Assembly (NCBI GenBank): GCA_965209055.1
Contig: OZ242374.1
Coordinates: forward strand, 3,872,001-3,936,000
Source: Acidobacteriota bacterium
GTDB lineage: Bacteria > Acidobacteriota > UBA6911 > RPQK01 > JAJDTT01
Length of the DNA: 64,000 nt
Reading direction: 5' to 3'
In this document: positions 32,106 through 54,452 of the stretch, piece by piece
Position numbering within the stretch: position 1 is the first letter of the stretch
How the letters are laid out: each line of letters begins with the position of its first letter
Translations under genes and position numbers: made by a program
The notes under the pieces: generated by a model
The model's database searches: none
What the model saw: the letters and a program-made list of their open reading frames with translations, nothing else
What the model was told of the DNA's origin: nothing

Positions 32106-32369
32106 TGGGAGGGGGGGCCTACCTCCGCAGCAACGAGGAAGCGGGAAGACGGGGGGACTAACAGTCCCAACTGTCCCAAAGTCAAAGACTACCGAACATT
32201 AACGTTTACAGTGATTTACCGGGTTCTTCGCCGAATCGGTAAGGTGGTTGACTCCCTATGTTTGACATGCTGAACAGGCAACAGACAGGCAGCCGAATCG
32301 GCTCCTGAAAGCCGGCGCGCCCTTTTTCTCCCTTCCGTATCAACTGCCCCAAGTGCGGCTCCGTGAACG

Positions 32370-32639
32370 TCAACGCTGCTTCGCGTCGGCAATTGCACTC
32401 GATATGTGGTCCACCATCCTCTGCGCAAATTCCAGACCGACAACTGCTTCTTGGTGAATGGTTGGCCCGTTACCCGGAGGCGGTGGTCCGAGTCGTCGGA
32501 ACTGAAACCACAACCTCGGTTTGGGAACCAGTCCCCGACCCGGAACGTCCACGAGAACGACTTGGGAAGCTAATCCGTCCCACGCCGCAATTTGTTGAAG
32601 GCGTTCGGGCGGAATTGTTTCGCGGGCTGGGTTCATCAT
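32370..32639 (-). CDS. Small hypothetical protein
   Basis: 89-aa ORF with a strong TAAGGAG RBS; no recognised motif. Confidence 0.5.
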   Translation of the reverse strand: MMNPARETIPPERLQQIAAWDGLASQVVLVDVPGRGLVPKPRLWFQFRRLGPPPPGNGPTIHQEAVVGLEFAQRMVDHISSAIADAKQR

Positions 32640-33094
32640 TAGGGTTACTCCTTACTCGGTTGCACCACTGAGTTGAGTGGTCGTTACTGAGCACCTTCGA
32701 GACACCGTAGCACGTCGAGGGGGTCCACTCCACGCTCACGTAGCTCCCATCCGATGTCGTAGAGCATTCCGAGGGTGACGGCGGATGAACAAGTCCGTAG
32801 ACCCCTTCGGACGGGACGGCATTCCCGAGAATCAGCATCCCCGGCAAGTGCCCTATGGCGCAGTGGGGAGGACCCGGCGCTACTTGGCGTTCAAACTGCA
32901 GATTGCCGTCGAGGACGGCAGGGCCACCCTCGTCTGTGTCGCTCCGGAGCCGGTGGTCACCAAGGGTCTGCGCTCCTGGATGGCGGCGCACCGGCGGTGG
33001 AGGATCGCTCCGTGTCAGTTGTGATCGAGATGACCACTCTCGACCGCCGCAAAGGTTTTTGGTGACTCGTTTCGGGCGTGCGTCAAGAGGGTCT

Positions 33095-33370
33095 CGCGCC
33101 CGATCCGGGATGTGAATGGGACAAAGGGGGTGGATTCACAAAAAGCGGTCCCGGTGACTCACAAATGCACTCTCCCCGATCTTTTTTCCTTTCAGTCAGT
33201 TACGGCCCCATTCCCGGCCACCGGGTGGCCGCACGGGGAAAATGGAGGTGGACGGGAGCGACCCCCCCTTTTTGCTGCCCGGTGCGGGCGCGGGGGTGTG
33301 GCGCAATTCACATTTGCGCCACACCCCCTGGGGGGTCGCTCCCGTCGCATTATCCCTTGGCGGGAAGGCC
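33095..33370 (+). repeat. 276-bp structured repeat, copy 1 (inverted partner at 46463-46738)
   Basis: Aligns with the reverse complement of 46463-46738. Nested stems at 33251-33267/33330-33346 and 33292-33306/33314-33328. Confidence 0.85.
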
Positions 33371-33430
33371 TGAAATGTCACCTGTTGCCAGGAATGCCTG
33401 GTAACACTTGGGATAGACTCCATCGGAAAA

Positions 33431-33988
33431 GTGCCCGAGAGTCTGAACGTCCTGCACAACCCGGCTCTCAAGCCGGAAGTCACGGACTGCGCCCTCCTGG
33501 AGGGCAACCTGGAAGAGTGGATCGTCTGCTGTTCGCAGCGATTCTTCCCGTTGGCCCGGAGAATTGCCAGAGACGACAGTCTCGCCGAGGACGCGCTTCA
33601 GACCAGTTGGATCAAGATCCTCCAATCCATCAACCACGCTTATTTCAACGGTCCCAGGGCCTGCCCCTGGGTGACCCGGATTGTCGCCAACACGGCTAAG
33701 GATGTTCGCCGGCGACGGCGTCGCCGGAGAGAGGTTGCCTTCTTTGAAGCCGAAGCTCCGGGTCGGACCCCTGAGGAACTGGTCCAAGAGAAGCAGATGT
33801 TGGTCCTGCTGCGGGAAATGGTGGCGCTCCTCCCGGACACCTACCGCCAAGTGATCGAGTTGCGTGTGTATAAAGGATTCTCCACACGGCAGACAGCAGA
33901 CCTGCTCCATGTCTCCCGCTCGGATGTCTCGACCCGGTTGCATCGTGCCACCAAGCTGCTCCAGCAACGCATCGACGCCCGCCTTTAG
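33431..33988 (+). CDS. ECF sigma factor (orphan)
   Basis: Region 2 AEDALQ and WVTRIVANTAKD. Region 4 LPDTYRQVIEL...TRLHRA. Confidence 0.85.
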   Translation: MPESLNVLHNPALKPEVTDCALLEGNLEEWIVCCSQRFFPLARRIARDDSLAEDALQTSWIKILQSINHAYFNGPRACPWVTRIVANTAKDVRRRRRRRREVAFFEAEAPGRTPEELVQEKQMLVLLREMVALLPDTYRQVIELRVYKGFSTRQTADLLHVSRSDVSTRLHRATKLLQQRIDARL

Positions 33989-35395: not shown

Positions 35396-36313
35396 CGCTC
35401 AACGAAGGCCGGAGCGCAAACCTCGGCGACACTTCCATCGGCAATCAGATCCCCGAGCGCAATCTGCTGCGCTCAACGAAGGCCAAGGCCCAAACCCCGG
35501 CGACACGCCCGCGGTGGGTGGGGCAATGCTGCTACGGGCAAGTACCCGCTCAACGAAGGCCGGAGCGTAAACTCCGGCGACACGCGTAGAGAACGCCTGG
35601 CCGATGTCGGCCACGATGTCCGCTCAACCAAGGCCGGAGCGTAAACTCCGGCGACACGTCAATCGTGAGCGGCACGCCGCGCAGGGAGCGAAGGCGCTCA
35701 ACCAAGGCCGGAGCGTAAACTCCGGCGACACTCGCGCCGGCGTGAGTTTCAACGACCAGGCGGGGCCACGCTCAACCAAGGCCGGAGCGTAAACTCCGGC
35801 GACACCCGTTCAGTTCGCACCAGGTGCCCCAAATCTGGTCCGCTCAACCAAGGCCGGAGCGTAAACTCCGGCGACACCCGCAACTTCTGGAACTGTTGTC
35901 CTGTGGCTCCAGCGCTCAACCAAGGCCGGAGCGTAAACTCCGGCGACACATGGCGGTCTCACCGTTGCTTCCGGTGGTGCCGTCCGCTCAACCAAGGCCG
36001 GAGCGTAAACTCCGGCGACACCTGCGCGTCGGCTTCGCGTCGCGGACCATCAACGCCGCTCAACCAAGGCCGGAGCGTAAACTCCGGCGACACACGGGGA
36101 CCGATTCGCAGGCCAGACTCGCATTGAGGCGCTCAACCAAGGCCGGAGCGTAAACTCCGGCGACACCTCTCGGACGCTAGCGTTGGACCAGCACGCCTTG
36201 TCCGCTCAACCAAGGCCGGAGCGTAAACTCCGGCGACACCCCGCGCGAAAGGCGCGCCGTTCATAGGCTACTACCGCGCTCAACCAAGGCCGGAGCGTAA
36301 ACTCCGGCGACAC
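35396..36313 (-). CRISPR. CRISPR array, 13 repeats / 12 spacers, type I-G-like
   Basis: 37-bp repeat GTGTCGCCGGAGTTTACGCTCCGGCCTTGGTTGAGCG (minus strand), spacers of 35-40 bp, degenerate repeats at the 35396 end. Confidence 0.98.
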
Positions 36314-36517
36314 CCCTAATCTTACAATGGACAGGGCTGGAACCAAGAGAATCGACGAAGAGCGCGCTCAGATCGAAGGAATCGATTGGGATTTTGGCCC
36401 CGTGGGGCGTCTTGGAACTCGCTGGTGGCTAGAACCAAATCACAAACGCCCTCAGGATTAGACTCATTGCACTGCACAACTGTAGTTTTGGCGGATCACC
36501 GGGGGTTCGCAAACCGC
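36314..36517 (-). promoter_or_regulatory. CRISPR leader
   Basis: Lower-GC non-coding stretch between cas2 and the conserved end of the array. Confidence 0.75.
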
Positions 36518-36808
36518 TCAGAGGACCCAAGGGTCCCCGAGTCGGTGGGGTTGGGTGCGTCCGAAACAGATGCGGGCATCGTCGAACCCGCCATTAAGTC
36601 GGTATATAATCAGGGAATCGACCTTGGGGTCCATGACGTCCTGTATCTCCCCGATCATGCGAGCCAGCCGCGAGGGAGTTTGCCTGCACTCAAACACCGA
36701 GAACTGTACTCGTTCGCCATATTTCTCGCAGATCTGGGCAACACGCTTGAGTCGCAGTGAACCATCGCCCCGAGTGTCGGCGATATCGTATGTGATGAGA
36801 AAGTCCAT
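36518..36808 (-). CDS. cas2: CRISPR-associated endonuclease Cas2
   Basis: LITYDI and GERVQFSVFEC. Confidence 0.96.
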   Translation of the reverse strand: MDFLITYDIADTRGDGSLRLKRVAQICEKYGERVQFSVFECRQTPSRLARMIGEIQDVMDPKVDSLIIYRLNGGFDDARICFGRTQPHRLGDPWVL

Positions 36809-36811
36809 GAT

Positions 36812-37828
36812 TCACGGCAGCACGAACGGGGGATAGGCTGGTAGATCTCCCCGAAGATGACGCGCCAGAAGGGTCGATTGGATGTGCGGAAGCGCCCATC
36901 GACCCACACCCCGACGGAGCACGGGATGCCGTAGCTCCGTTGCCTTGTGTTTCTCCCACGCGTGAATCAGCAACTTTCGTCCCTCGTCGTTGAGGTAGAC
37001 CGCACCACCCGGCGTCCGCACGAAATGATCTTCCCGTAGCTGCTGACGTCGGACCAGCGACACGACGAAGCGGTCCGTAAGAGGCCGTAGCTCCTCGGCA
37101 AGGTCGAGTGCGAGCGACGGCCGGCCTGATCTCGGTCGGTGAAAGAAGCCCATTTGGTAATCGAGTCCAACGCTCTCAATGGCGCCGATGAGTTCCGTCA
37201 CCAAGAGTCCATAGCAGAAGCCGAGCGCCGAGTTTACGGGATCCCGGGGCGGCCGCCTGCTCCGGGCCAGGAATTCGCAATTTGAGTCCGCCAGGACTTC
37301 GCCCACTCCGCGAAAGTAAACGCGCGCCGCATCGCCCTCAATGCCCCGGACATGGTCCGGTGTCGGGGCGTCGCTGACGCGGGGCACCCGGACCAGAAGC
37401 TGGTCGGCACGCCGGGCAAGGCTGCCAGCCAGAACCGGATCCTTTGCGTCGCGACTCCATCGGCCGAGCACTTTTCTGCTGTTTTGTAGTTTCGCCGCCA
37501 CCACCGCCTTGGAGAGTGCCACCGCTTGAACCTCGTCGCTGACGGCGCGATAAAGAGCGGCCCGCAAGTGAACGTTTCCGCCCGTCTTGTGACCGACGAC
37601 GAATCGTATGGAGCCGCTCTGGCGGAGCGCCGCTACGCGCACACCCCTCTTGGCGCACGCCTCCAAGGCTTGGGACGTGATCTGGCCGCCACCAATTAGT
37701 ACGAGCCCATCGATCCCCTCGAGCGGAACACGCTGCTTCCCGTCCGGCGTGGATACGAGCAAGGATCCGCGGCGATGGCCAACACGCGCCCGGTGATTGC
37801 GCACATACAGCGTGCTCAGGTAGCGCAT
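36812..37828 (-). CDS. cas1: CRISPR-associated endonuclease Cas1
   Basis: RGIEGDAARVYF, RPPRDPVNSAL, GFFH and SLALDLAEELRP. Confidence 0.96.
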   Translation of the reverse strand: MRYLSTLYVRNHRARVGHRRGSLLVSTPDGKQRVPLEGIDGLVLIGGGQITSQALEACAKRGVRVAALRQSGSIRFVVGHKTGGNVHLRAALYRAVSDEVQAVALSKAVVAAKLQNSRKVLGRWSRDAKDPVLAGSLARRADQLLVRVPRVSDAPTPDHVRGIEGDAARVYFRGVGEVLADSNCEFLARSRRPPRDPVNSALGFCYGLLVTELIGAIESVGLDYQMGFFHRPRSGRPSLALDLAEELRPLTDRFVVSLVRRQQLREDHFVRTPGGAVYLNDEGRKLLIHAWEKHKATELRHPVLRRGVGRWALPHIQSTLLARHLRGDLPAYPPFVLP

Positions 37829-38433
37829 TTGAAGACTGTCCCAGTCATGTAGCGACTTATGCGGCGGGGTGCACTGGTCACCTCCGGCAAGCAATGAGCC
37901 CGGAGTTGACACTTCTGGCAGCGTTCGTCATTGGGAGCGTCCGGCAATTTTCCGGAAAGCACCTGACTCCGGATCGCCTCAACGATTTCCCGGACCTGCG
38001 CTCGGAGTTCTGGCGTGAAAGGAACCCGTAGGCGGCGCCTGGGTCCCCCGTACCAAATGTAGCCTGCCGGTATCTCCACGCCGAGCATTTCTTCCAGGCA
38101 CATGCCCTGCGCGCACACTTGCAGGTCGGCCGTATCGCCGTGTCGCACGCCTGACTTGTATTCGACCGGGCAAACCCGACCGCCATCGATCTCGACCGCG
38201 TCAGCGCGGCCCGAGAGGCCCAGCTCCTCCGACCACAGCGGTATCCCGCGTAGGACGAGCTTCCCACGTTCATGCCGGGAACGACCGGAGTCCACACGCC
38301 GGTGGGCCCGCGAGCCCCTTACGGTGTGTGCATTATCGCTCCATACGCCGTCGCAGTGAATCAGGGCGCACTGCCTCGCGCAATACGCGAAGTGCTCGAT
38401 CGCCGAAATCAGGACGACCGGATCGTCAGTCAA
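37816..38433 (-). CDS. cas4: CRISPR-associated exonuclease Cas4
   Basis: YCARQ, GRADAVE, PVEYK and C-terminal CxxC....C Fe-S ligands. Confidence 0.95.
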   Translation of the reverse strand: MTDDPVVLISAIEHFAYCARQCALIHCDGVWSDNAHTVRGSRAHRRVDSGRSRHERGKLVLRGIPLWSEELGLSGRADAVEIDGGRVCPVEYKSGVRHGDTADLQVCAQGMCLEEMLGVEIPAGYIWYGGPRRRLRVPFTPELRAQVREIVEAIRSQVLSGKLPDAPNDERCQKCQLRAHCLPEVTSAPRRISRYMTGTVFKCAT

Positions 38434-39319
38434 GTCTCTCTGCTCCGAAGCCGCGGGTCGTATCCGAGGTTCCCTTTGCCTCGTAGTTCACACTCCGCCA
38501 CGCCGCGTGGATTCCAAAGCGGGCCCAAGAACTCTTCCGATCGATCCGCCATAGATCGAGGAGCGCGTCAATCCCCGCACAGTTGAGAGGAATGCTCCAG
38601 ACGGGCCAAGCAAAACGAGACCGTGCCCGGCGATCATCTTCCCGCACCCACCCCCGTTGGATCGTGGAGGCGCGGACGCCCTTTCCCGTGCGCGCGTCCG
38701 TCCCGGTCCCCCGCACCGGAAAAAGAGCCAATCCAAAGAACGCTAGCGTCTCCACCACCGGATCAACCCACTTCGAAGCCGCGTCCGCTCCGGACCCCAT
38801 CCGCGCTATATCGAAACCGAGGCCGTTGTTTTCGATTCTCTCGCCCGTGCCCTCAAACGTTCGGCGAAGATCCTCCGTCCCCGGTGTGAAGTGCAGCTTT
38901 AGCAGGCGGTCATGCATGACGTACCCGCGTGGCACTGGCGGATCGAACGGAGAGTGTGCGACGTTACCCTTGTCATCGACGTGGAGGTCGGTGATCGTTG
39001 ACGAGAGCGTCCACGACAGGGGATCTGTGCGTACGGCGGAGGCGCGCGACGCGAATGCGTCCACCGGGACGTTTCTCGGCAGGTCTTCAATATTCGGCCA
39101 CGCCCTCCGAATCGGCATGCTTTCGAGCGTGGAGCGGCTCGGCCAGGAACTCGCCAGGACGGCTACTGGGTCCTCCTGCTGGCAGCATAGAACAGCTTGA
39201 GGCGTGCCCTCTTGTGTCCAACGCAGCCGTAACTTGGGACTGACAACCGTGGCTCCGACCGCTGCAAGCCACGCGTTGATCCACGACGCTGGCAACCCGG
39301 GGCATGTCACTTCCTTCAT
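38426..39319 (-). CDS. csb3: Type I-G large subunit, compact Csb3 (Cas8u2)-like
   Basis: Position directly after cas3, and WLAAVG, LGFD, PVVETLAFFGL and FAWPVWSIPL segments. Confidence 0.7.
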   Translation of the reverse strand: MKEVTCPGLPASWINAWLAAVGATVVSPKLRLRWTQEGTPQAVLCCQQEDPVAVLASSWPSRSTLESMPIRRAWPNIEDLPRNVPVDAFASRASAVRTDPLSWTLSSTITDLHVDDKGNVAHSPFDPPVPRGYVMHDRLLKLHFTPGTEDLRRTFEGTGERIENNGLGFDIARMGSGADAASKWVDPVVETLAFFGLALFPVRGTGTDARTGKGVRASTIQRGWVREDDRRARSRFAWPVWSIPLNCAGIDALLDLWRIDRKSSWARFGIHAAWRSVNYEAKGTSDTTRGFGAERLD

Positions 39320-42147
39320 GGTTTGGCCTCCACCGCGGGTATTGGCACACCGCTGGAGACCGCATGGTCGGCCGTCCGCAAAATAGATTCCATCAACGCC
39401 AGCCCCCAGGGCCCGAAGCTCTCGTTGAGCCGCCTGAATCGAGCTGGCTGTTCCCAGTCGACAACCGAAAGATCGGCGGAGGCTTCCAGCCGGACGCCGT
39501 CGATCTCCGATACCACTATCTCCGCTGCGCCGTCGATCACGGGCGGGATCAGTGGCCGTCCGCCCCCGTGATGGCTGATCACGAGATGGACGAGGAGGTC
39601 GGCTAGTCGAGGGTCAAAATCATTTTCCAATGTATCGATCCAAAGCCGAACCAGCCGTGCGGACAGCGTTTCATGTCGGCCGCCTCGGGGCCAACCGGCC
39701 GCGACTCGCGTTGCGTTCCAACGGTTCTTCGGCATACCCGACTTTGCGAGAAAGGGGGAGGCTCGCCCGTTCGGGGCTGTGGCGTTCGGATTGAGCCAGC
39801 GTTGGAAACGCGGATCAGCCTTGCCGGTGTCATGCCACCGGCCAGCGAGTATGATCACGTTAACGAGTTCCGAGGGAAGTCCAACCTGTTCCGCGATCGA
39901 ACGGGACATGATCCCCACCGCTTCTCCGTGAGTATCGAGGAGAACCGCCGTCGGGGCGAGTGAAGTCTCATCGAGTTCTTCGCTTGATTGTTCCGTCCTG
40001 CCGTCGGCAGGAAGACGAAAGCGCGGAACCTCGTTGGGCGAAAAAACCACCCTCGGTTCAAGGGCTTCCAGGAAGTCTCGCCATTCGGCCTCTTCCCACC
40101 CTGCGGGTGTGGTCTCGGACATAGCTTGGAGGAACTGTTCAGCGGCATCCTGCCGCTCGGCCTCGTCTATTTCCTCCTCGTCCGGGACATGCCCCAAAGC
40201 CTTCCGGAGCAGACTCCGCAAAGGTACGTTGCCAGACGCCGTTTCAAGGGGTTTGGTCAGAGAAACGCCGCCCATTCGTTGAATCGCCTCCTCATCAAGT
40301 GGCAATCCCCGAGCGGCGATCGACACGTCGAAGACAGGAGAAGTCGAATCGGGATTCCAGCCGAATTCGTCAAGCAGACCCCTGTCGGACGGAAGCAGGA
40401 CAACGTCTCCGGGACGGAGTTTCCTGATCGGGATGGACTCGATGGTGATCTGGTCGGTGCGGAGACGCTTGACTTCTTCATCCTCGCCGATGGCCCTTTT
40501 TATTGCGCCGATCGGGACGTTCACGACCTCACGGTCGAAGGGGCGCGGCCAGAGCCGTTGCTCGGCAACCGGGACGTGGCCCCGCCAGATGACCGACACT
40601 GTGTAGTCGATGCCTGAGATGCCGGAGAAATACGGCTCTACCGGGGCCTCTTCCAGAGGTGGCGTTGTAGTCTTAATCCATTCCCACAAGAGACCGTTGA
40701 GGATCTCTGGCGCACGTCCCGGATCGTCGCTCGGCTCTCGGAGTATTTCCGAGACCCTCCTTGGCGAAAGATCAACACTCGCCTTGGCCGGATCCAGGGA
40801 ATTCTTTAATCGTTCCAGCACCGTGTCTGGTTCAGTACCATAGACAGGCCACTCAGCCGGACCCGTCCTCTTGCGCGCTCCCCGTTTCTTGGGAGGCGTA
40901 TGGGCATACACGCCCCGTGCATGATCGAAGTGACCGAGGCGGTTGAGGCGACCCAACCGCTGGGTGAGCGCACGGACGCCGCAGGTTTCGGTGACCAGGT
41001 ACTCCGCGTCAATATCGGCACCCACCTCAAGTGTCTGAGTGGCGATGACAATCAGGTGCCGCGACCGTGCCGTGCCGGGGTTGCGGTCCGCAGCCATGCC
41101 CTCGACTCCGTCCAGGATCCGCGTTCGGATGAATTCCGCCTCCCGCTCCCGGGTTCGGCCTGTCAGGAGGAGCGTGTCGGCAGCCGATGCCGGGAATCGC
41201 TTCCGTAGAAGCGTGAGGACCCCTCGGGCCGTATCCGGCGTGTTGGCGAAGACCAGACATGACGAAGACGGCGACGCCTTCAGAAGATCCTCCACGGCCT
41301 CCGTCAAGTGCCGAACGGGGTCGCCCGATGAGCGGACTCGAATCGTCACCGGCTTGCTGGCGTCGAGCCTTTGCCCCACGGTAGCATTGCCTTCGTCGTC
41401 CGCGTTGAGATCAAATCGATCTCCCTCCGGCGCGTCTCCCGTTGCGGTCAGGGCCACAACTTGCGGCCGCGATCGTGGCGCTCCGAGGATCTCTTTCGCC
41501 CCCTTGGTGCATTCCGAGAGCGCGGAGACAAGGTTCGTGAGATGTCGGGCCAGGTGCGCTTCATCCACCAGGAGCAGACAGTCGCTTCCCGCAAACGCCG
41601 CGTCGACTGGGCGCATCATCCGGCTGGTTCCGTAGCCGCGAAACAGCAGACGAGACCCATACATGGGGATAGTCGACAGGAGTACCGCGGGACTGGACGG
41701 ATCGGTCGGACGCTTCGCTCCGACGCCGCCTCGGAGTCGGATTACTTCAAGGGGAGAAGCCGTTGGAGCGGCCGCCAGGGAACGCAAACGCTCTCCCACG
41801 ACGCGAAGGGGCCTCACGTCGCTGCCACGAAGAGTCTCACTGATCCACAGGGCATGTTCTGCGGTGGAATCGACAAGGAGCCGCCGGTTGACCAGCCACC
41901 AAATCCGGGTCGGGGCCGTGCGCTCGCTGGGTGGCCGTTCAGCTTGCGACGCCAGCCACCAAACGGCGATGTCCAGGCAGGCCGTCTTTCCCAGCCCAGT
42001 GGGAACCCCGATTTCAGTCGGCCAACGGTCTGATTCCGCGACCTTCTCCGCGAGTCGTGCCTGCCACGGGAAGGGCGGGCGCTCGTTGAGTGCCTGGTAG
42101 AACTCCGGGAACGTCGGCATCGGGTCCAGTCGTGGCGCATCAAACAT
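39316..42147 (-). CDS. cas3: Type I-G Cas3 helicase with C-terminal HD nuclease
   Basis: PTGLGKT, DEAH, LTAT and QRLGRLNR. C-terminal H...HDTGK...RHE...SHHG...ADH. Confidence 0.95.
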   Translation of the reverse strand: MFDAPRLDPMPTFPEFYQALNERPPFPWQARLAEKVAESDRWPTEIGVPTGLGKTACLDIAVWWLASQAERPPSERTAPTRIWWLVNRRLLVDSTAEHALWISETLRGSDVRPLRVVGERLRSLAAAPTASPLEVIRLRGGVGAKRPTDPSSPAVLLSTIPMYGSRLLFRGYGTSRMMRPVDAAFAGSDCLLLVDEAHLARHLTNLVSALSECTKGAKEILGAPRSRPQVVALTATGDAPEGDRFDLNADDEGNATVGQRLDASKPVTIRVRSSGDPVRHLTEAVEDLLKASPSSSCLVFANTPDTARGVLTLLRKRFPASAADTLLLTGRTREREAEFIRTRILDGVEGMAADRNPGTARSRHLIVIATQTLEVGADIDAEYLVTETCGVRALTQRLGRLNRLGHFDHARGVYAHTPPKKRGARKRTGPAEWPVYGTEPDTVLERLKNSLDPAKASVDLSPRRVSEILREPSDDPGRAPEILNGLLWEWIKTTTPPLEEAPVEPYFSGISGIDYTVSVIWRGHVPVAEQRLWPRPFDREVVNVPIGAIKRAIGEDEEVKRLRTDQITIESIPIRKLRPGDVVLLPSDRGLLDEFGWNPDSTSPVFDVSIAARGLPLDEEAIQRMGGVSLTKPLETASGNVPLRSLLRKALGHVPDEEEIDEAERQDAAEQFLQAMSETTPAGWEEAEWRDFLEALEPRVVFSPNEVPRFRLPADGRTEQSSEELDETSLAPTAVLLDTHGEAVGIMSRSIAEQVGLPSELVNVIILAGRWHDTGKADPRFQRWLNPNATAPNGRASPFLAKSGMPKNRWNATRVAAGWPRGGRHETLSARLVRLWIDTLENDFDPRLADLLVHLVISHHGGGRPLIPPVIDGAAEIVVSEIDGVRLEASADLSVVDWEQPARFRRLNESFGPWGLALMESILRTADHAVSSGVPIPAVEAKP

Positions 42148-45709: not shown

Positions 45710-45739
45710 CGACGGAGGACTCGTCCGGAGGCAGGGAGA

Positions 45740-46427: not shown

Positions 46428-46462
46428 ACATCCCATATTGCCGGTCACGGGTGTCTTTTATT

Positions 46463-46738
46463 GGCCTTCCCGCCAGGGATATTTTGGAAGGGAGCGACCC
46501 CCCAGGGGGTGTGGCAAAGATGTATATTGCGCCACACCCCCGCGCCCGCACCGGGCAGGAAAAAGGGGGGGTCGCTCCCTTCCACCTCCGCTTTCCCCGT
46601 GCGGGCGCGGCGAAGCCGGGAATGTGGCCGTAACTGCATTAACGACAAAGAGTTCGGGGAAATCGGAGGTGTAAGTCAAAAGGCTTCCGGGATGGAACTC
46701 GCGTCCATTGTCTCACTTACACTCCCGGATCGGGCGCG
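46463..46738 (-). repeat. 276-bp structured repeat, copy 2
   Basis: Reverse-complement homolog of 33095-33370. Outer stem at 46485-46503/46566-46584. Confidence 0.85.
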
Positions 46739-46829
46739 GAACCCCACTTTTCAGCGGTCAAGATCGACCTCCCGGAAGCCGGCTCAAACGCCAGATCGCG
46801 AAACCTGCCGGGGGGACGACCACGGCGGA

Positions 46830-48053
46830 TCAACGGAGCCGATCAGATGCCGGTTGCCGACTCTCGCCAGCCAGATAGCCCGCCCAGTCGTCCATCAGAC
46901 GCCTCCGCCGCTCGAACAGGTCCGTGCGCCGGTAGGCGGCCTCGACCGGGTTGCGGACCTTGTGCGCCAAAGCCGCCTCCGCCACCTCGCGCGGATGATC
47001 CGTCTCCTCCGCTGCCCAGTCGCGAAAGCTCGACCGGAACCCGTGCGGCACCGCCGCGATCGTCAACCCCCGGAGCAGTTCCGACATGGCCGTATTACCG
47101 ATGGGCTTTCCACCCACCCTCGGAAAAACGAGTGGGCTGCCGCCACCGAGCGCCTGCGCCTCCTCCAGGATCTCCAATGCTCGTCGGGCCAAGGGGACCC
47201 GGTGCTCCCGATTCCCCTTCGTCCGTGCGGCCGGGATGGTCCACACTCCTTCCTCCCGGTCGATCTCCTTCCACGCGGCCCCACGGACCTCGCCGGAGCG
47301 TGTCGCCGTCAGGACCAGGAACTCGAACATCAGCTTCAACAACGGCCGCTTGTTAGATGCCCGCACCGTCTGGAGTGCGGACGCCACTTCACCGTGAGGC
47401 AACGCCCGCATGTGACGCACGGCGTTCCCCTGCGAGCCGAGCACCGGCCCAATCCGGTCGCACGGGTTGTCGGGCCGAAGATCCATCGCCACGGCCCACT
47501 CCAGGACCGCGCGGATGCGCTGGCGCAGCTTCCGTGCCGTGGGGGCCTTCTCGTGCCAGATCGGAGCGAGGATTCCGATCACGTCGGCGCTCGTCACCTC
47601 CGCAATCGGCATCTTTCCGATATGAGGCAGGACGTGGCGCTCCAGGCTTCCCAGCCAGAGCTGCGCATGCAGGGGGGAGCGCCAGCCCGGACGCAACTGC
47701 TTCCAGACCGTCCGGGCGGCGTCCGCGAAGGTGGGCATCGACTCGGCCCGCCGCCTCTCGGCCCGGGGGTCGCCCCCGTCGCGGGCCAGCTTCCGGTTGG
47801 CGAACGCCTTCTCGCGCGCTTCCTTGAGCGAGACGAGGGGGAATCCGCCGAGGCCGAGCTCGGTTCGGCGGCCCCGGATCGTGATGCGCTGGATCCAGCC
47901 CCGGCTGCCCGTGGGCCGGACGTCGAGATAGAGGCCTTGGCCGTCGCAATAGCGTCCGGCCTGGTTCACGTTGCGGACAAAGGCCGGTGTCAGAGCATTG
48001 AGGGGATGCCGACCGCGCGGCTTGCGTTTCGGAGGTCGTTTTGTAAGTCTCAT
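46830..48053 (-). CDS. P4-like tyrosine integrase
   Basis: Arm-binding N-terminus (DGQGLYL, LGGFPLVSLKEAR). Catalytic residues in TATRSGE, RTK, HGFR, LAH and AAY are intact. Confidence 0.93.
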   Translation of the reverse strand: MRLTKRPPKRKPRGRHPLNALTPAFVRNVNQAGRYCDGQGLYLDVRPTGSRGWIQRITIRGRRTELGLGGFPLVSLKEAREKAFANRKLARDGGDPRAERRRAESMPTFADAARTVWKQLRPGWRSPLHAQLWLGSLERHVLPHIGKMPIAEVTSADVIGILAPIWHEKAPTARKLRQRIRAVLEWAVAMDLRPDNPCDRIGPVLGSQGNAVRHMRALPHGEVASALQTVRASNKRPLLKLMFEFLVLTATRSGEVRGAAWKEIDREEGVWTIPAARTKGNREHRVPLARRALEILEEAQALGGGSPLVFPRVGGKPIGNTAMSELLRGLTIAAVPHGFRSSFRDWAAEETDHPREVAEAALAHKVRNPVEAAYRRTDLFERRRRLMDDWAGYLAGESRQPASDRLR

Positions 48054-48866
48054 GCCTACCACTATACCTACCACCATATGGTGGATGCAAGGGGATGGAG
48101 TGGATCGGTATGGGACAAGTTCGGATGTCCGAACTAGTGTTAAATCAACTAAATATAGACACTTATGGACAATTCTGGACTTACCTGGACAATGTATCCG
48201 ATTCAATCAAGGATTCCTTGCGGGAAGGATTCGAGGAGGCTTGACCGACTATCCCGAGTGCCAGGACTGTGTGGCCATTTATTCGGAGTTCACCATGTGG
48301 CGAACCAGCGAAACCGAGATTTTGGACAAAGACAATAGGTTTACGACAAGCGGATCTGTACCGGGAACTCCAGAAACCGGAGATTCAGGCCCTGTTCAAG
48401 GAGAATCCGCACTGCTCCGAGTCGGTCCCCGGACCGGGCCTCGGTTCAGCGTCCCCAGGCTTCGACTCGATCCCCGAGCCGGGTTGGAGACGCATCGGAC
48501 TCTTGCGTCGCCACCGATAGCGTTTTCGGGCAAGATTTCATAATACTGTCAGCAAATTGCGAGCATTGTCATATTAGGGTCACTTCTTCCATATACACCC
48601 GCACCTTCTGTACGATATCCTTTGAATCTCATGTGAAGCGGCGGCGGCGGGTAGATCCTACTGCTATACGCTGTCGGGTCCAGCGGAGGTTGTGTGTCTC
48701 GCGTTAGTGGAGGTCGCGCGGAAGAAGTGCTTGGATCGTTGCTAGCCGAACAGTAATCGCACCCACACGGGGAAGGGTATGACCTCAGCCTTTCGACCCG
48801 GCCCCGGTGCGATGTCCGGGAGGCGGTATCGAACCTCGCCGCCCCCTTGGATTTGAAGGAGAAGAA

Positions 48867-49370
48867 ATGAAGTTACATCTGGAGCGAGCGTTGTTCATGA
48901 TCGGAAGGCAGTACACAGGGAAGAACACGCAATTGCTTAGCCTGAAGGAATTGATCGCAGGAAGGACAACTAGGCGGCGGCGATTTGACCTTGGAAACAA
49001 TCGATGGCTCTACGTCCGTTCTGGTTCGCCACAAGAAGAAGGACAGGACTTGGACGATTTTCTTCTAGCATGCGCCCGTCATATGCAACCCAGAAGCTAC
49101 CAGTGGAATTATGCCTGCGCCATGCAATCGAATCCTGGTACGAATATCGGCGGTGCGGTCAGTACGATCAAGGCTTTCAAAAACGAGTTTTCTCCAGGCC
49201 GTGTCTGTGCGGTGATCTTGTGTCCCGACTGGCGAGGCAACCGATTTCCCGAAGAGAGAAAATCGTTGATTACGCGCCTATCGGACATAGGTGTATCCGA
49301 AATCCTAACAGTGGATGCCAGAAAGCGACATTCGAACGGACCACAATACGCCGGGTTCTTCGGCATTTGA
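48867..49370 (+). CDS. Hypothetical protein with P-loop-like motif
   Basis: AAGGAG RBS and an N-terminal hydrophobic strand followed by GRQYTGKNT. Confidence 0.55.
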   Translation: MKLHLERALFMIGRQYTGKNTQLLSLKELIAGRTTRRRRFDLGNNRWLYVRSGSPQEEGQDLDDFLLACARHMQPRSYQWNYACAMQSNPGTNIGGAVSTIKAFKNEFSPGRVCAVILCPDWRGNRFPEERKSLITRLSDIGVSEILTVDARKRHSNGPQYAGFFGI

Positions 49371-49548
49371 ATGTCTGTTGACGATTAGTGAGAATCTCCT
49401 TGATGAACACTTTCCTGATCTCCCTAGCGGTTCCAAATCAGGAGGTTTCCTCCCGGATCAAATCCAAATTCCCAAAGTCCTTCGAGTACACGTCGTGGAC
49501 ACTGGCACCCGCTGAGAGGGAGCACCGACAAGGCAAGTTGGGCGCGGG

Positions 49549-49899
49549 ATGAGATCTGAATTCGTTGTCCTCGCCATTTTCGTTTGGTCTACACTCGCTG
49601 GCTGCGGTACCTCGACGCCTGGCTGCGGCGATGAAGAGACTCTCAATCTCGTTAAGGAAATTGCCTCACGGGAACTCAGCGCCCCTGGCAGGTTGATGCG
49701 TGGCAGGAAGATTGAAGTTTCCGCCTCTGAGATTGAGCTTAGCTACGTCAGCATAGTTGCTCATGACAAGGAATTGGACATCTACTCCTGTTCCGCCAGT
49801 TTGGACTGGAAGGAGCTATCGTTGCCAATTCAGTTTGATGTTCGACCATCGGCGACTGACCCGACCCAATTCGTTGTCCAAGTCTATGGGCTGCGGTGA
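49549..49899 (+). CDS. Small lipoprotein
   Basis: Signal peptide with LAGC lipobox and a further Cys pair. Confidence 0.7.
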   Translation: MRSEFVVLAIFVWSTLAGCGTSTPGCGDEETLNLVKEIASRELSAPGRLMRGRKIEVSASEIELSYVSIVAHDKELDIYSCSASLDWKELSLPIQFDVRPSATDPTQFVVQVYGLR

Positions 49900-50110
49900 T
49901 TTCCCGGCGGCATTCGAGAATTAGGAACTAGCTTAGGAGAGACCATGGCGAATTGCTGGGTCGTAGGAGCATTTGTGGATGGCGACCCTGAGCCGGTTCC
50001 AGAGAGTTGCCTGCTTCCTCCCGCCGCCGATCCGACGGCGTAACTGGGAGTCTGAAGGACTGGTCCCTCAGTCCTTGCGGGAAAAAGAGGGAGCCCGAGG
50101 GGGAAAACCC

Positions 50111-50355
50111 ATGACTGACCTGATTGACGTTGCATTTGTTGTGGGCATTCTGATTTTTTAGTCGGACCCGCATGGATAGCCGTACGAGCCTTTGAGTTTT
50201 CCGCTCGCTCGCTCATACGTTCCGATCATGCCAATGATGATGACTCGCCCCGGACATGGCTCCAGCGCCTCGGGACGGCTATTGGTGTCGTCCTTGCCGT
50301 GATTTTGGTCATTGCCAGTTCGGTCATCGGTGCTCATAAGCGGGGCGAGAGTTGA
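50111..50355 (+). pseudogene. Frameshifted small 2-TM protein
   Basis: MTDLIDVAFVVGILIF* continues as VGPAWIAV...AIGVVLAVILVIASSVIG if one T is added to the T6 run at about 50154-50159. Confidence 0.45.
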
Positions 50356-50594
50356 TGACGCAATCCCGTGATTGGCGCACCGAATATGAGGCGCAAGCTT
50401 CGGCAATCCGCGGCGCCATGGGAAACGGCGAATGGGCGAAGGCGTACGATCTGTGCGACTCATTCGTGCACTGGCATAAGCTACGGGCCAGTGAGACTAA
50501 TGAACACCCGCTAACCTTGCGCGGTCGTTTGATCTGGGTTTACCGACTTCGCAATCAGATTCGGAAAAAGATGTCTCCTGCCCAGAGACAATAG
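50355..50594 (+). CDS. Small hypothetical protein
   Basis: TGATG coupling to the upstream remnant. Confidence 0.4.
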   Translation: MTQSRDWRTEYEAQASAIRGAMGNGEWAKAYDLCDSFVHWHKLRASETNEHPLTLRGRLIWVYRLRNQIRKKMSPAQRQ

Positions 50595-50725
50595 CGAGCC
50601 AGGGGCCCATCACTGCGAACGTTGCGAGGACCTCACCGAGACCGTCTGGCGCTGGATGGAGACGTGCCCCTGCCGGAGGCGCACTGTCGGGAACAGGCCG
50701 AGAAAAGGGACGGATAAATCAGACT

Positions 50726-50938
50726 ATGGTGAGCGACAGACAACGTCCTCCCCAGCGTGGTAGGAATGTCAGTATTGGTGGGGTTATCGGTACAGCTATT
50801 GGTGGGGTCATCGGCGGGGTCATCGGCTGGGCAATGGGCTACTCGCTCGGCAGAGTCGTCGGTACCGCGTTAGGTTTCGGGTTGGGGGCTGGGCTGGCGG
50901 CGCTGGTGCATCTTTGGGTTCGGGGTCGTTGCAACTGA
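50726..50938 (+). CDS. Small glycine-zipper membrane protein
   Basis: IGGVIGTAIGGVIGGVIG GxxxG repeats. Confidence 0.55.
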   Translation: MVSDRQRPPQRGRNVSIGGVIGTAIGGVIGGVIGWAMGYSLGRVVGTALGFGLGAGLAALVHLWVRGRCN

Positions 50939-51026
50939 GGATTCTCCCCCGGTCTCCGGCGGCTTGATCCACTCTCCCGGACAGATACACATATTTTCAG
51001 TTGTCGTGCTCAAGGACGGTCCCGAT

Positions 51027-51494
51027 ATGAATTTTCTCGAGCAGATCACGGCAGAATATTTTGGGCTAAGGGGCTTCTGGGTTAGGGTTCGTGAACCGTG
51101 GCCGGATGGTCGGCGCGGCGACCTGGACGTGCTGGCCTATGATGCCAAAACGGATCGACTATTCCATATCGAGTGCGGAGGCAATGGCGACGCCGAAAAC
51201 CTGAAAAAGCTCAAGGACTCGAAGTTCGAGTGTGGCGCATTTTACCGGCGGCATTTCCAGTGCGAGCGAGTAGTGCGCCTTGCGGTTTCCGGGTGGGGCC
51301 GTGAGAAATCTGAAGCCCGCGCCAAGGAATATCAACAGCACGAAATTTGTCTTATGAGCGTCGGTGAGCTCATGACTGAAATTCGCTCCTACATTGAGTC
51401 CGATTGGTGGCCGCCCCGCGACCGGGCGATCCGGCAGTATCCGATTCTGCGCGGGATCCAGGAGACGTTGCGATACACGGGGAACCGACGGTGA
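51027..51494 (+). CDS. PD-(D/E)xK nuclease-fold protein
   Basis: LEQITAEYF..RGF, GDLDVLA and FHIEC (usual ExK lysine absent). Confidence 0.6.
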   Translation: MNFLEQITAEYFGLRGFWVRVREPWPDGRRGDLDVLAYDAKTDRLFHIECGGNGDAENLKKLKDSKFECGAFYRRHFQCERVVRLAVSGWGREKSEARAKEYQQHEICLMSVGELMTEIRSYIESDWWPPRDRAIRQYPILRGIQETLRYTGNRR

Positions 51495-51765
51495 TCTGCT
51501 TTATCGTTCCCTCATCCGATCCCAGAGGGCCGGCCGCTTTCTCCCGCCGCCGATCCGCCGCCTCCGGACTCGCGAACCGCGCATGTAGGCAACCTGACCC
51601 AACTGGGCTTTGTCCCCTGGAGGCAGCGCCGGTAGAAGTCCTCGACCCTAACTAGCTGTTATTTCCCCTCTTCATGCTCCCACAAGTCTATGGAGACTAC
51701 CCCACTACCGTCTAGTTCGCCTTGGTGAGAGATAAGCCGCTGCTGCCCTGCAAGGACCGCGCTGC

Positions 51766-51955
51766 CTATTGGGGGAGGAAGGGAACCGAAGGCACAGATG
51801 GCTCGACAATGAGGACGCCCCGCGCCAGCCCGTAGTTGAGACGCGGCCACGCCTCCTCGATCTTCTTCAACTCGCTCAGCGACTTCTTGCGAAAGTCATA
51901 GACGGCCGCTTTGTCACCCGCCGTGGAGGGGTTCATCCCAAACTGGCGGTAGATT
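51766..51955 (-). pseudogene. C-terminal relic of a plasmid-type RepA replication protein
   Basis: YRQFG...FRKKSLSELKKIEEAWP.LNY....GVLIVEPS resembles the recalled RepA_C C-terminus. No matching 5' part is present. Confidence 0.55.
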
Positions 51956-52065
51956 CCTCCGCCCGGTCTTCGCCCTGGAGGACTTGAACGCCTACGCCGA
52001 TTCTCTGGAGCCGTGGTACGATTCGCACCACGGCGAAGAACCCGGATCCAGAAAGGAGGAGATGC

Positions 52066-53172
52066 ATGGGCATCTATAAGGTGAAGGATCGCCGGGGGAG
52101 ACGACGTTTCGTCGTCAGCAAGTACTGGCCGCATGGATCCGGTCGGCTCCGAATGTACGCCCCCAATTACCGGAGCGCGCAGGCGCTTCAAACACGAATC
52201 GAGTCCAGCATCCTGGACGGCACATGGAAGCAGCTCAAGCGGGAACTGGCCGGTGGGAACCGCACCGTCTGGACGGTCCGGAGCTTCTACGAGCGTTTCT
52301 TCGAGGAGTACTGCAAACCTCGCATGCGCTCCCGGCGTCGCTATGCGCTCTCGTTCAAGAGCCTCAACGCCGTGCTGGGGCACATTCCCCTGAAGGAGTT
52401 CCAACGCAAAGACCTGTACCGCTACGTCGCCAAGAGGAAGAAGCAAGTGCAGCCGGCCACGGTGAACCGGGACATTGCCGCCATCAGCAAACTGTTTTCC
52501 TTTGCGCTGGAGTGCGGAGAGGTGGACACGCACCCGCTGGTGAGATTCCCCAAACTCAAAGAACCCAAGAAGGTCTTCCGGCCATTGACGGTTCAACAGT
52601 TCCGCGACCTGGTCGAGGCGATGGACAACCCTTACCTGCAAGCCATGGTTTCGGTGATCGGCGAGACGGGGATACGGAAAGGCGAAGCGTTGTCGCTCAC
52701 CTGGAAACGGGTGGACCTATCCCGGAGGCTGCTATGGGTGGAATTCACCAAGAACGACGAGCCGAGGGAGATCCCGCTGTCGAAGTACGCCGCAGGATAC
52801 CTGACCGGGCTGGTTCGCTACCTGAGCACCCCATACGTCTTCGTCAACACCCGGACGGGGACGAAATGGGTGAATCCGGACAAGCCCTTGCGCCGGGCCG
52901 CCGATCGGTTGGGGTTGAAGGTCGGCTTTCACGACCTGAGACGATTCCGGTGCAGCCACTGGCTGATGCAGGGGGTGGACGTGAGGACGGTGCAGAAGCT
53001 GATGGGCCACTCCTCGATCAGCACGACGATGCGCTACGCAGGTTACGTCAGTTCTCATGCGCTTGCCAGCATACGGGAGGCACAGGCTACCGAAGACTCA
53101 CAAATGCTATCGGCAACAAACAGGCAACGGGCAGGAAATGGGAGGAACGATTTGAGAGGAGCATCGGGATAA
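52066..53172 (+). CDS. Tyrosine integrase (phage-like)
   Basis: AGGAGG RBS. PATVNRD, TGIRKGE, TKN, FHDLR, MGH and TMRY are intact. Confidence 0.93.
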   Translation: MGIYKVKDRRGRRRFVVSKYWPHGSGRLRMYAPNYRSAQALQTRIESSILDGTWKQLKRELAGGNRTVWTVRSFYERFFEEYCKPRMRSRRRYALSFKSLNAVLGHIPLKEFQRKDLYRYVAKRKKQVQPATVNRDIAAISKLFSFALECGEVDTHPLVRFPKLKEPKKVFRPLTVQQFRDLVEAMDNPYLQAMVSVIGETGIRKGEALSLTWKRVDLSRRLLWVEFTKNDEPREIPLSKYAAGYLTGLVRYLSTPYVFVNTRTGTKWVNPDKPLRRAADRLGLKVGFHDLRRFRCSHWLMQGVDVRTVQKLMGHSSISTTMRYAGYVSSHALASIREAQATEDSQMLSATNRQRAGNGRNDLRGASG

Positions 53173-53192
53173 CCTGTTGAAAGGAAAGGATC

Positions 53193-53226
53193 AGTCCCGT
53201 AGCTTAGCAGGACAGAGCGGCGGACT
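53193..53226 (+). other. 5' half of a tRNA (Arg-like), att-site remnant
   Basis: AGTCCCG-TA-GCTT-AGCAGGACA-GAGC-G-GCGGA-CT gives the acceptor strand, D-arm and 5' anticodon stem. There is no anticodon or 3' half. Confidence 0.7.
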
Positions 53227-53240
53227 AACAGTCCCCCCTC

Positions 53241-54452
53241 CTATGGACCCAGGTTCCGCCACCAGCGCAGCTCCAGACCCCTCTCGTTCACCGCGACGAC
53301 GTCGGACCACCCGTTGCCGTCCATGTCGGCCACGATCACGGTGGCGCCCAGGATCCAGTGCTCCTTCAGCGGGTGCTTTTTCCAGGGATCTTTGGGATCT
53401 CCGGAATTCTCGAACCAGGCAATCTGCCCCTTCTGGCCGAAGCTGGTGGCCACCACGTCCAGATCGCCGTCCTTGTCCAGATCGTGGGGGACACCCTCGA
53501 AGCCGGACCAGAAACCTTCCTGGATGTTGTGCATGCGCCAGCGGTGACCCCGGCCCGGTTTGCCGGTGTTCTCGTACCAGACCAGGTAGTGGCGCTCCGG
53601 AGCATCTCTCCCCAGCAGCCCGCCCGCCATGATCAGATCCAGGTCGCCGTCCCGGTCGAGGTCGACAGGCGTGCCATGCATGGGCAGATGGCGGAGGCTG
53701 ATGACGTGCCGCCGCCAGGGACCGGCGGCCGGATGACCGCTGTTCTCGTACCAGAGGACCATGCCGGCCACGCGGGCCGAACCCACCAGGTCGATCAGGC
53801 CGTCTCCGTTGAAGTCGCCCGCGCGGATCATCCGGGTCTCGAACCGCCCTTCGTCCACGACGTGGGCGGGCCACTCTTCGTGCTGCCACGGACCGGGATT
53901 CCGATACCAGGTAAACTTGTTCCCGAGCCGCCAACTGGAAGCCGCTACGTCCGGGCGGCCGTCCCCGTCCAGATCGGCCACGTCCACGTCGTAGGCCCCC
54001 ATGAGGCCGCCGCTGGTGATGGAGTGTCTTTTCCACGATTCGGTCTGTGCCGGGTTGCCCGGATTCTCGAACCAGAAGACGTCGCCGTAAAAATTGTCGA
54101 TCCCGACCAGATCGATATGCCCGTCCTGGTTGATGTCCGCCAGCCGGTGCCGTTCGTAACGGCCTTGCCAGTCCTCGTTGGCGATGTAATGGCGCCGGAA
54201 CTTGCCGGACCCGTCGTTCTCGTACCAATAGAAGGCGTTGTGGATGCGGGATCCCTTGGTCCCGCAATCGGAGCTGGAAAGATCCAGGTCGCCGTCGCCG
54301 TCCAGGTCGGCCGCGGCCACGGCATAGGCGTAGGTGTAGTCGTTGGAGATGAGGTGTTCCTCGAACTTCAGGTCCTTCGCCTGGAGGGCCAGGCTCGCGG
54401 TGGCGAGTCCGAGAAAAATTCCATAGGAACTCCGATATCCGGTCCAGTTCAT
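53241..54452 (-). CDS. Exported FG-GAP/VCBS repeat protein
   Basis: GGAGG RBS, signal peptide and about 7 D.DGDG..D / WYEN repeats. Confidence 0.88.
   Translation of the reverse strand: MNWTGYRSSYGIFLGLATASLALQAKDLKFEEHLISNDYTYAYAVAAADLDGDGDLDLSSSDCGTKGSRIHNAFYWYENDGSGKFRRHYIANEDWQGRYERHRLADINQDGHIDLVGIDNFYGDVFWFENPGNPAQTESWKRHSITSGGLMGAYDVDVADLDGDGRPDVAASSWRLGNKFTWYRNPGPWQHEEWPAHVVDEGRFETRMIRAGDFNGDGLIDLVGSARVAGMVLWYENSGHPAAGPWRRHVISLRHLPMHGTPVDLDRDGDLDLIMAGGLLGRDAPERHYLVWYENTGKPGRGHRWRMHNIQEGFWSGFEGVPHDLDKDGDLDVVATSFGQKGQIAWFENSGDPKDPWKKHPLKEHWILGATVIVADMDGNGWSDVVAVNERGLELRWWRNLGP

Follow-up and report, generated by a model that had tools for sequence, protein, structure and literature searches.

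A CRISPR-carrying island in a REP hairpin belongs to a multicopy tyrosine-integrase family of tRNA anticodon-loop origin and has flanks from two ancestral loci

How does an island with a type I-G CRISPR-Cas module (CRISPR, clusters of regularly interspaced short palindromic repeats) come to lie inside a repetitive extragenic palindrome (REP)? The tyrosine integrase of a genomic island is regarded as bound to a single conserved site or to a few of them, in most cases tRNA genes. The question was raised by a 64-kb stretch of an Acidobacteriota genome (contig OZ242374.1, positions 3,872,001 to 3,936,000; hereafter the window), in which the island spans positions 32155-53235. The source genome, G000, is a one-contig assembly of 6,077,182 bp and was compared with related genomes, cited below by handles such as G001. 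The best explanation overall is that the island belongs to a family of elements whose integrase was retargeted from a tRNA anticodon loop to REP hairpins, and that its flanks were exchanged by an inversion; a probability of about 0.8 is assigned to this reading.

The coordinates of the features are collected in Table 1. A 14-bp direct repeat, GGACTAACAGTCCC, was confirmed at 32155 and 53222 and was found a third time at 31837, all on the plus strand; with up to two mismatches, shuffled sequence yielded 0.26 matches on average. At the left junction the sequence is GGGGGGAC-TAACA-GTCCC with AACTGTCCC next to it, and at the right junction it is GCGGAC-TAACA-GTCCCCCC-TCCTAT. One stem is shortened at each junction, and the outer halves combined form a perfect GGGGGGAC/GTCCCCCC hairpin, as an initial annotation of the window had proposed for the joined ends. 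The same annotation had placed the REP between two convergent gene ends. This holds on the right, where attR overlaps the stop codon of an FG-GAP gene (53241-54638, minus strand) and the stop sits in the TCCTA tail of the REP. It fails on the left, where there is no intact gene; an insertion sequence (IS) transposase gene (30616-31770) lies between the aminotransferase gene and its duplicated 3' fragment. The REP at 31837 is a bystander, and no tRNA gene was found in the window by ARAGORN.

Inside the left junction, the left module carries AACAGGCA arm-type repeats at 32273-32291, a small conserved open reading frame (ORF) at 32785-33024 and a single copy of a structured repeat of ~285-400 bp at 32975-33370. 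From 32155 to 33370 it is 98.4% identical to the corresponding module of a 3.5-kb sibling (G000 835569-839097). The right module begins near 51750. Its integrase gene, reported earlier as intact, has no internal stop and ends 50 bp before the right core. The encoded protein is a tyrosine recombinase of family PF00589, with the motifs GIRKGE (202), HDLRR (289), GH (314) and MRYAG (322), and integrases and Xer recombinases of solved structure align with its catalytic domain (5c6k_A, E 1.5e-17). Some 90 residues precede the SAM-like domain, and the protein matched no arm-domain family; its only other matches were PF02899 and PF24624, the latter below its cut-off. Matches of the protein in the ESM Atlas were generic integrase clusters only.

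By tblastn, 26 full-length paralogs of this integrase were found in the source genome at 84-95% identity, each located 50-100 bp upstream of a right arm. Integrase matches numbered 28 in G000 and 9 in G004; G001 had 0, and the remaining same-genus genomes had 1-2 apiece. All close homologs that were found (28 loci; phylum as given in the record titles) belong to this Acidobacteriota genus. The 14-mer has 44 copies in the 6.08-Mb genome. Element junctions account for 32 of them (15 pairs, one unpaired left end and the left end of an element at the contig end), and the other 12, including the copy at 31837, are uninterrupted REPs. Most copies are fused on one side to a left arm (AACTGTCCCAAAGTCAAAGACTACCGAAC...) or a right arm (CCCGTAGCTCAGTTGGACAGAGCNNC). 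The number of left arms located was 29. When each right end was paired with the nearest left end on the same strand, 25 elements of 2,683-25,065 bp were obtained, and a 26th was cut by the contig end.

A survey of the flanks of integrase homologs had been suggested as a check on REP targeting. In all 25 paired elements, the same 7 nt were present at both junctions and the palindrome was rebuilt by the outer flanks. The loop classes were CTGTTAG (8 elements), CTAACAG (7, the island included), TTTCCAA (5), TTTCCTA (4) and TTTCTAA (1), and the rebuilt palindromes included GGGGGGA-loop-TCCCCCC, GGGGCGA-TTTCCAA-TCGCCC and GTGGGGGT-TTTCCTA-CCCCCAC. In the TTTCCTA class, attP and target share 7 nt only, which points to strand exchange within the loop. 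The arm-like repeats noted earlier inside both ends proved stronger than claimed. Measured from the left junction, AACAGGCA, with at most one mismatch, stands at +109 and +120, and measured from the right junction at -113/-114, in every one of the 25 elements; 21 of them have at least two copies on the right. The background is 0.063 per 220 bp. This spacing is the layout of arm-type integrase sites, and the same repeats are present in the homologs of G003 and G010.

The REP-type hairpins are multicopy, extragenic, GC-rich palindromes with copies after gene ends. In the source genome, hairpins of the forms GGGGAC..GTCCCC, GGCGA..TCGCC and CGGCGG..CCGCCG number 111, 453 and 371, respectively, and intact GGCGA-TTTCCAA-TCGCC is present in 79 copies. 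Two matches to PF01797 (Y1/RAYT) were obtained in this genome, both weak (30.8 and 23.6 bits, cut-off 23), and a RAYT origin of the hairpins is not established.

The smallest members of the family, of 2.7 kb, have the family integrase as their sole recognisable gene and end in asymmetric arms; they are not insertion sequences in the sense of a DDE or IS110 transposase with terminal inverted repeats. Two copies, at 4495143-4497909 (hereafter E2) and 6054138-6056904, are 100% identical over 2,767 bp, and both lie at synteny breakpoints. One of them is a very recent copy of the other, so the family has moved very recently. G001, which lacks the family integrase, keeps solitary left arms (3834956 and 532301; loci L054 and L055) that resemble what lost elements would leave behind, and one of the arms is joined to half of a GGGGGGACTGTCAGTCCC hairpin.

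Eleven elements were compared with same-genus relatives for empty sites. The element at 5216594-5224139 was absent from 5/5 relatives, with collinear flanks 89-153 bp apart, and that at 4644892-4652885 likewise from 5/5, with flanks 106-374 bp apart. The site of 2828067-2832194 was empty in three of five relatives (G002, G003 and G005; flanks 38-171 bp apart), and in G002 and G003 one intact orthologous REP stood precisely at the insertion site. Five elements, the island included, had flanks lying far apart in relatives, and those at 2974091, 3004466 and 783010 were uninformative because one flank was repeated or unfound. The proposal of an integrative element with multicopy REPs as attB is thus sustained by the family anatomy, by three sibling empty sites and by the tRNA-Arg homolog of G003 described below; the model of a single site for this particular island is not.

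The origin of the family was traced through its more distant members. In G003, a complete tRNA-Arg(TCT) stands after an integrase of 82% identity, on the same strand, and ~47 kb away the left arm and arm repeats of the family recur, joined to the displaced 5' half of the tRNA with CTTCTAA-TCC. This is the textbook arrangement of an island that has split a tRNA gene, here tRNA-Arg(TCT), in its anticodon loop. The G010 homolog (70% identity) neighbours tRNA-Arg(TCG), homologs of 44-53% identity adjoin tRNA-Arg(TCT) or its 3' half, and others of 39-44% adjoin tRNA-Leu. Insertion that restores a tRNA was found for the G003 and G010 homologs, and the island carries only a pseudo half (Table 1). The REP loop TTTCTAA equals the tRNA loop CTTCTAA but for one base, and further loops beside REP stems within the genus were TTTCTAG, CTTCCAG, CTTTTAG, TTTCCTG, CTTTCAG and CTTTCCT. 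Taken together, the tRNA likeness of the right arm, the architecture in G003 and the loop series mark the family as one whose integrase used an anticodon loop and was retargeted to hairpins with the shape of an anticodon arm.

A course of events can be proposed on this basis. The family, probably driven by a tyrosine integrase of the heterobivalent type, descends from an island integrating in the anticodon loop of tRNA-Arg(UCU). The attP of the family is still tRNA-like, with a pseudo acceptor and D-arm, NCGGA, a 7-nt 'anticodon loop', TCCC and the left arm, and with arm repeats ~110 bp to each side. Within the genus the 7-nt overlap has shifted, and attP now matches loops of GC-rich REPs, with REP stems in place of the anticodon stem. 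Integration would then be ordinary site-specific recombination, probably catalysed by the family integrase, with strand exchange in the 7-nt loop that duplicates the loop and halves the hairpin. The elements multiply in a genome like an insertion sequence, mostly with defence cargo, which in this copy is the type I-G CRISPR-Cas module.

A further reading is put forward tentatively and is rather doubtful. The integrase might read the geometry of a stem-loop resembling an anticodon arm and not a fixed sequence, its target set being determined almost wholly by the 7 nt of attP. The family would then reprogramme itself to new REP families through changes of a few bases and take up defence cargo at an internal landing pad that a second integrase family uses, and its att sites would be switches for inversions of hundreds of kilobases. 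The natural loop series proposed for it runs CTTCTAA (tRNA), TTTCTAA, TTTCCAA, TTTCCTA, CTTTTAG and CTGTTAG/CTAACAG. If true, it would describe a naturally retargetable tyrosine-integrase platform able to colonise hundreds of neutral sites.

The flanks of the island itself required a separate explanation. An empty REP allele joining 32168 to 53236 had been expected in relatives; it was found in none of the seven examined, and the flanks derive from two loci. Left flank A is followed by segment B (G000 4495141->4493663) in six of seven relatives (G001, G002, G003, G005, G007 and G008), and the seventh, G004, has a different family element in the neighbouring hairpin. Right flank F is followed by segment D (G000 4497955->4499400) in five of six relatives (G001-G005), whereas a repeated element occupies this place in G007. 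E2, a 2.77-kb sibling 0.57 Mb from the island, is flanked by B on one side and by D on the other. Since A adjoins B and F adjoins D in relatives, the outer REP halves of the island come from two ancestral loci ~0.6 Mb apart.

The island and E2 have the same orientation and inverted loops (CTAACAG and CTGTTAG), and each keeps arms of its own class, which places the exchange at the att cores and not inside the elements. The two elements are thus linked by a ~0.57-Mb inversion with crossovers at their att cores, which swapped the outer halves of two REP loci. Homologous recombination inside the elements was also considered as the cause of the inversion and was rejected, given the direct orientation of the pair and their own-class arms.

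Three orders of insertion and inversion are compatible with the data. The island could have entered the A/B REP and E2 the F/D REP, followed by att x att exchange; the mirror case could hold; or an inversion between empty REPs could have come first, followed by two insertions. An exchange of att sites that followed the two insertions, with the integrase as its most likely agent, is given slightly better than even odds and is preferred to an inversion between empty REPs, because five of the eight elements with informative flanks lie at synteny breakpoints.

The most serious rival is the last of these orders, judged unlikely but well short of negligible. Under it, homologous or other recombination over ~30 bp between two empty REPs made a hybrid A-F REP, into which the island then inserted, and E2 inserted independently into the reciprocal hybrid REP. 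Such an origin demands a rare exchange of 30-bp repeats 0.57 Mb apart and subsequent insertion into both products, and the hybrid empty REP is the very allele missing from the seven relatives. Double occupancy of two given sites is in itself not very unlikely, as over half of the core REPs are occupied (32/44), and E2 is a very recent copy. Both junction pairs also fit one simple insertion each, A-left arm ... right arm-F and reverse-complemented B-left arm ... right arm-D. The five elements at synteny breakpoints, however, suggest that the rearrangements were caused by the elements or by their integrase.

Read evidence from the sample was taken from contigs of four runs (X20-X23), which were compared with window positions 33401-53400. 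The short-read contigs were identical to the unique parts of the island, with 0 other letters over 9479, 3618 and 1479 nt. Two contigs, X20 record 7 (2166 nt) and X21 record 14 (7566 nt), match the right flank from exactly 53222, the first core base, and may reflect population variation or an alternative junction at attR. No contig bridging attR as assembled was present among the matches listed, and no joint showing excision or a circle was found in these contigs, which drop rare forms. In a search of runs, the other holders were sponge or marine metagenomes, with shares of 0.06-0.13.

These contigs bear on a second rival, under which the adjacency of A and F is an assembly artefact or the minor path of a polymorphic population, the island lying mostly in one ancestral REP. 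It is considered improbable. The repeat common to both junctions is only ~30 bp and the adjoining arms are copy-specific, and it is unlikely that a one-contig assembly would be mis-joined reciprocally at the two ends of a 0.57-Mb segment. The two right-flank contigs, with their mismatch upstream of 53222 and no bridging contig among the matches listed, speak for it, as does the status of the relatives' records as metagenome-assembled genomes; the contigs are otherwise identical to the unique parts of the island.

Several observations weigh against the preferred reading of a retargeted integrase family with flank exchange by inversion. The 112 upstream letters of the two right-flank contigs do not fit the right arm of the island, clean empty sites were obtained for only three of the 11 elements, and the site joining 32168 to 53236 was absent from all seven relatives. 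For this island, neither an excised circle nor an attP junction nor an empty allele was observed. The central three bases of CTAACAG and CTGTTAG differ, and recombination across these classes would be non-canonical for a homologous overlap. No excisionase was recognised, as the left-module ORFs 32785-33024, 32363-32671, 32370-32639 and L028 1795-2022 had no PHROGs match, and two of them, scanned against Pfam as well, had none there either. The link between integrase and junctions is drawn from sequence. The source genome is, like those of the relatives, probably a metagenome assembly, which leaves some small chance of a wrong assembly path through a polymorphic inversion.

It is very improbable that another enzyme moved the island, whether the internal P4-type integrase (Table 1), a REP-associated Y1 transposase, or a transposase of the DDE or IS110 type. 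The minimal 2.7-kb elements have only the family integrase to offer, and the P4-type integrase is missing from them and has an end repeat of its own. A duplicated 7-nt core, inverted half-sites and two-sided arm repeats are moreover the signature of a tyrosine integrase. These points were held to outweigh the presence of a second integrase inside the island and the two weak PF01797 matches, together with the record of REPs as targets of IS3- and IS110-family elements (PMC1525189, available part). The possibility raised at the outset that the two 14-mers are independent REP copies flanking non-mobile DNA, with an unrelated integrase, can hardly be upheld: the 14-mer is multicopy (44) and has its third copy 318 bp leftward, but on their inner sides the 14-mers run into arms that 25 elements have in common and whose distance from the integrase gene is constant, and the same architecture stands in a real tRNA-Arg gene in G003.

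Among known systems, the closest are islands of tRNA anticodon loops; Williams is said to have set out in 2002 a sublocation class of tyrosine integrases that target this loop. Of such islands, the one in tRNA-Arg(TCT) of G003 is directly related to the present family. The present family shares with them the integrase clade (82% to the G003 copy), the left arm and arm repeats, a crossover in a 7-nt loop between inverted stem halves and a tRNA half beside the integrase gene. It differs in targeting a multicopy extragenic hairpin, in carrying its tRNA half as pseudo-sequence and in using at least five overlaps in one genome and more in the genus. One or few copies are usual for such islands, in contrast to the 26 per genome counted here.

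A second parallel is the integron. The integron integrase is a tyrosine recombinase that acts on attC, and in both systems a tyrosine recombinase meets an imperfect palindrome or hairpin of variable sequence. The elements described here carry their own integrase and arms, unlike attC cassettes, and the integrase scored 58.3 bits against the integron-integrase model, far under its cut-off of 265. Tycheposons are integrase-bearing elements with exchangeable cargo. Pipolins have been presented as defence platforms (PMC11551731, available part). With these and other defence islands the family shares small integrase modules with exchangeable defence cargo. They use tRNA or other single sites, and the available parts of the sources describe neither REP targeting nor an overlap series for them.

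Insertion sequences that target REPs include the IS3-family element ISPsy8 and the IS110-family elements ISPa11, ISPpu9 and ISPpu10 (PMC1525189, available part), and IS110 elements use a bridge RNA (PMC11208160, available part). Like the present family, they land in REP hairpins, which are multicopy and for the most part neutral sites, and they increase in number within a genome. Their enzymes, however, are DDE/DEDD transposases (RNA-guided in IS110) and they carry no cargo, whereas the elements studied here have a phage-type tyrosine integrase, arm sites and cargo up to ~22 kb. A literature search, made outside subscription journals and supplements, returned REP targeting for IS elements only and no REP-targeting tyrosine-integrase island. 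In mechanism the family agrees with the integrases of tRNA-targeting islands; its new features are the REP target class, the overlap series, the IS-like copy number and the role in inversion.

Within one clade, the stepwise exit of an anticodon-loop integrase from its tRNA can be followed, with a fossil tRNA half kept in attP and with repeated hairpins of similar structure, and many different overlaps, taken up in its place. The loops form a natural series in which the resetting of tyrosine-integrase specificity can be studied, a matter of interest to the design of retargetable integrases. The family also accounts for how defence genes (CRISPR-Cas, restriction-modification and Abi) can reach dozens of sites in one genome, and its elements are breakpoints of large inversions in these Acidobacteriota genomes.

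Table 1. Features of the island and its flanks, in window coordinates.
Feature	Position	Strand	Remarks
Uninterrupted REP copy	31837..31850	+	Ortholog of the REP that follows the G001 aminotransferase gene
Left flank A: duplicated 3' fragment of aminotransferase gene	31959..32117	+	94% identical to 30277-30436
attL	32151..32168	+	Outer REP half GGGGGGA, 7-nt overlap CTAACAG (32158-32164), element half TCCC
Left module	32165..33370	+	Conserved left arm, arm repeats, small ORF, structured repeat
Extracytoplasmic function (ECF) sigma factor	33431..33988	+	Cargo
CRISPR array	35546..36315		11 repeats, 10 spacers
Type I-G cas operon	36518..44778	-	
cas2	36518..36808	-	
cas1	36812..37912	-	
cas4	37816..38433	-	
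Cas3-extension	38426..39319	-	
cas3g	39316..42147	-	
csb2	42140..43771	-	
csb1/cas7	43573..44778	-	
Second, inverted copy of structured repeat	46463..46745	-	Abuts P4-type integrase
Second tyrosine integrase, P4 type	46830..48206	-	Arm-DNA-bind_3, 458 aa; separate family
Lower-GC cargo (3.5 kb)	48229..51750		ORFs of no known family
Family tyrosine integrase	52066..53172	+	368 aa; PF00589 at 97.8 bits (cut-off 27.1)
Right arm-type repeats AACAGGCA	53112..53128	+	Within 3' end of integrase gene
Right arm	53196..53234	+	Pseudo 5' half of tRNA-Arg(UCU); 31/39 bases equal G000 tRNA-Arg(TCT) positions 4-42
attR	53222..53245	+	Element half GGA, overlap CTAACAG (53225-53231), outer REP half TCCCCCC-TCCTAT

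The cargo of the island includes the core trio of a type I-G system, Cas3g, Csb1/Cas7g and Csb2/Cas5-6g. The models matched by the trio were TIGR02621 (617 bits, cut-off 400), TIGR02165 (180 bits, cut-off 45) and TIGR02570 (50.8 bits, cut-off 38). No Cas8g/Csx17 large subunit was found among the island ORFs scanned. The initial claim that the element moves a full type I-G system is therefore upheld only in part: the island carries Cas3g, Csb1, Csb2, Cas4, Cas1, Cas2 and the 11-repeat array, and the claim goes too far with regard to the large subunit. A Cas4-Cas1 fusion is usual in type I-G. Here cas4 and cas1 are separate ORFs with an overlap of ~97 nt, scoring 137 and 267 bits against the fusion model (cut-off 560), which could be due to a frameshift or a true split.

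When the array spacers were compared with their own genome, only chance matches of 14-18 nt were obtained. Contigs of all four runs contained, at window 35546-35585, a repeat-spacer-repeat unit with a 33-nt spacer absent from the assembly and without a match in G000. Its depth was 6.7 of 21.5, 21.1 of 41.4, 10.6 of 18.5 and 11 of 16, corresponding to ~30-70% of the depth of unique regions. The CRISPR array is thus variable within the population sampled, as would fit a continuing acquisition of spacers.

The cas module (35396-44788) is 82% identical at the nucleotide level to a chromosomal locus of G002, where it lies without this element, and no integrase was found in the 37 kb examined around it. 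Its presence there at an ordinary site, without a family element, indicates that the cas genes also move independently of this vehicle. The cas and CRISPR module of G002 (2110145-2120882; loci L056/L057) lies between two ~175-bp copies (G000 5742728-5742902).

The P4-type integrase represents a family of ~15-18 copies in the source genome (window 46463-48228; further copies include 3143463-3145220, 3382666-3384073 and 1609320-1610677). Each is followed by a repeat of ~285 bp with a long conserved outer stem, GGACGGGAGCGACCCCCCC ... GGGGGGGTCGCTCCCGTC, and a sharp end at ...GGGAAGGCC. This structured repeat gave 71 BLAST pieces in the source genome and is frequent also in G001, without the family integrase. 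Each element of the island's own family has one copy, at 450-850 bp from the left end. The sigma factor, the CRISPR array and the cas genes of the island (33371-46462) are bracketed by two copies in inverted orientation. The structured repeat may serve as a landing pad for cargo loading. An Rfam search with a minimal element that includes it gave nothing credible, the best E being 0.031, far below the gathering score.

Restriction or abortive-infection domains were found in 11 of the 17 sibling elements longer than 6 kb. They comprised type I restriction-modification systems in four elements, a type III-like system, an MmeI-like and a type ISP enzyme, NotI with a D12 methylase, GmrSD in three elements, and AbiTii/Abi_alpha/FRG. 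The element family is a carrier of defence genes.

At the left flank of the island, the duplicated fragment has counterparts in other genomes. The 3' end of the aminotransferase gene and its REPs are tandemly duplicated, with two copies in G000 and G008 (locus L058) and three in G002 (locus L015). Segmental duplication bounded by REPs recurs at the aminotransferase locus.

Two further observations concern the content of sibling elements. A family element of 20.6 kb (G000 3374144-3394733) contains a nested trio of tandem tyrosine recombinase genes (L069 5067-7769), which adjoins a P4-type integrase and a type I restriction-modification system. An identical reverse transcriptase of 499 aa (RVT_1) is present in three family elements (L029 2723-4222, L071 9709-11208 and L074 1214-2713). 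The ~1.9-kb RVT_1 unit has 11 copies in G002 and is probably a group II intron-like retroelement invading the islands.

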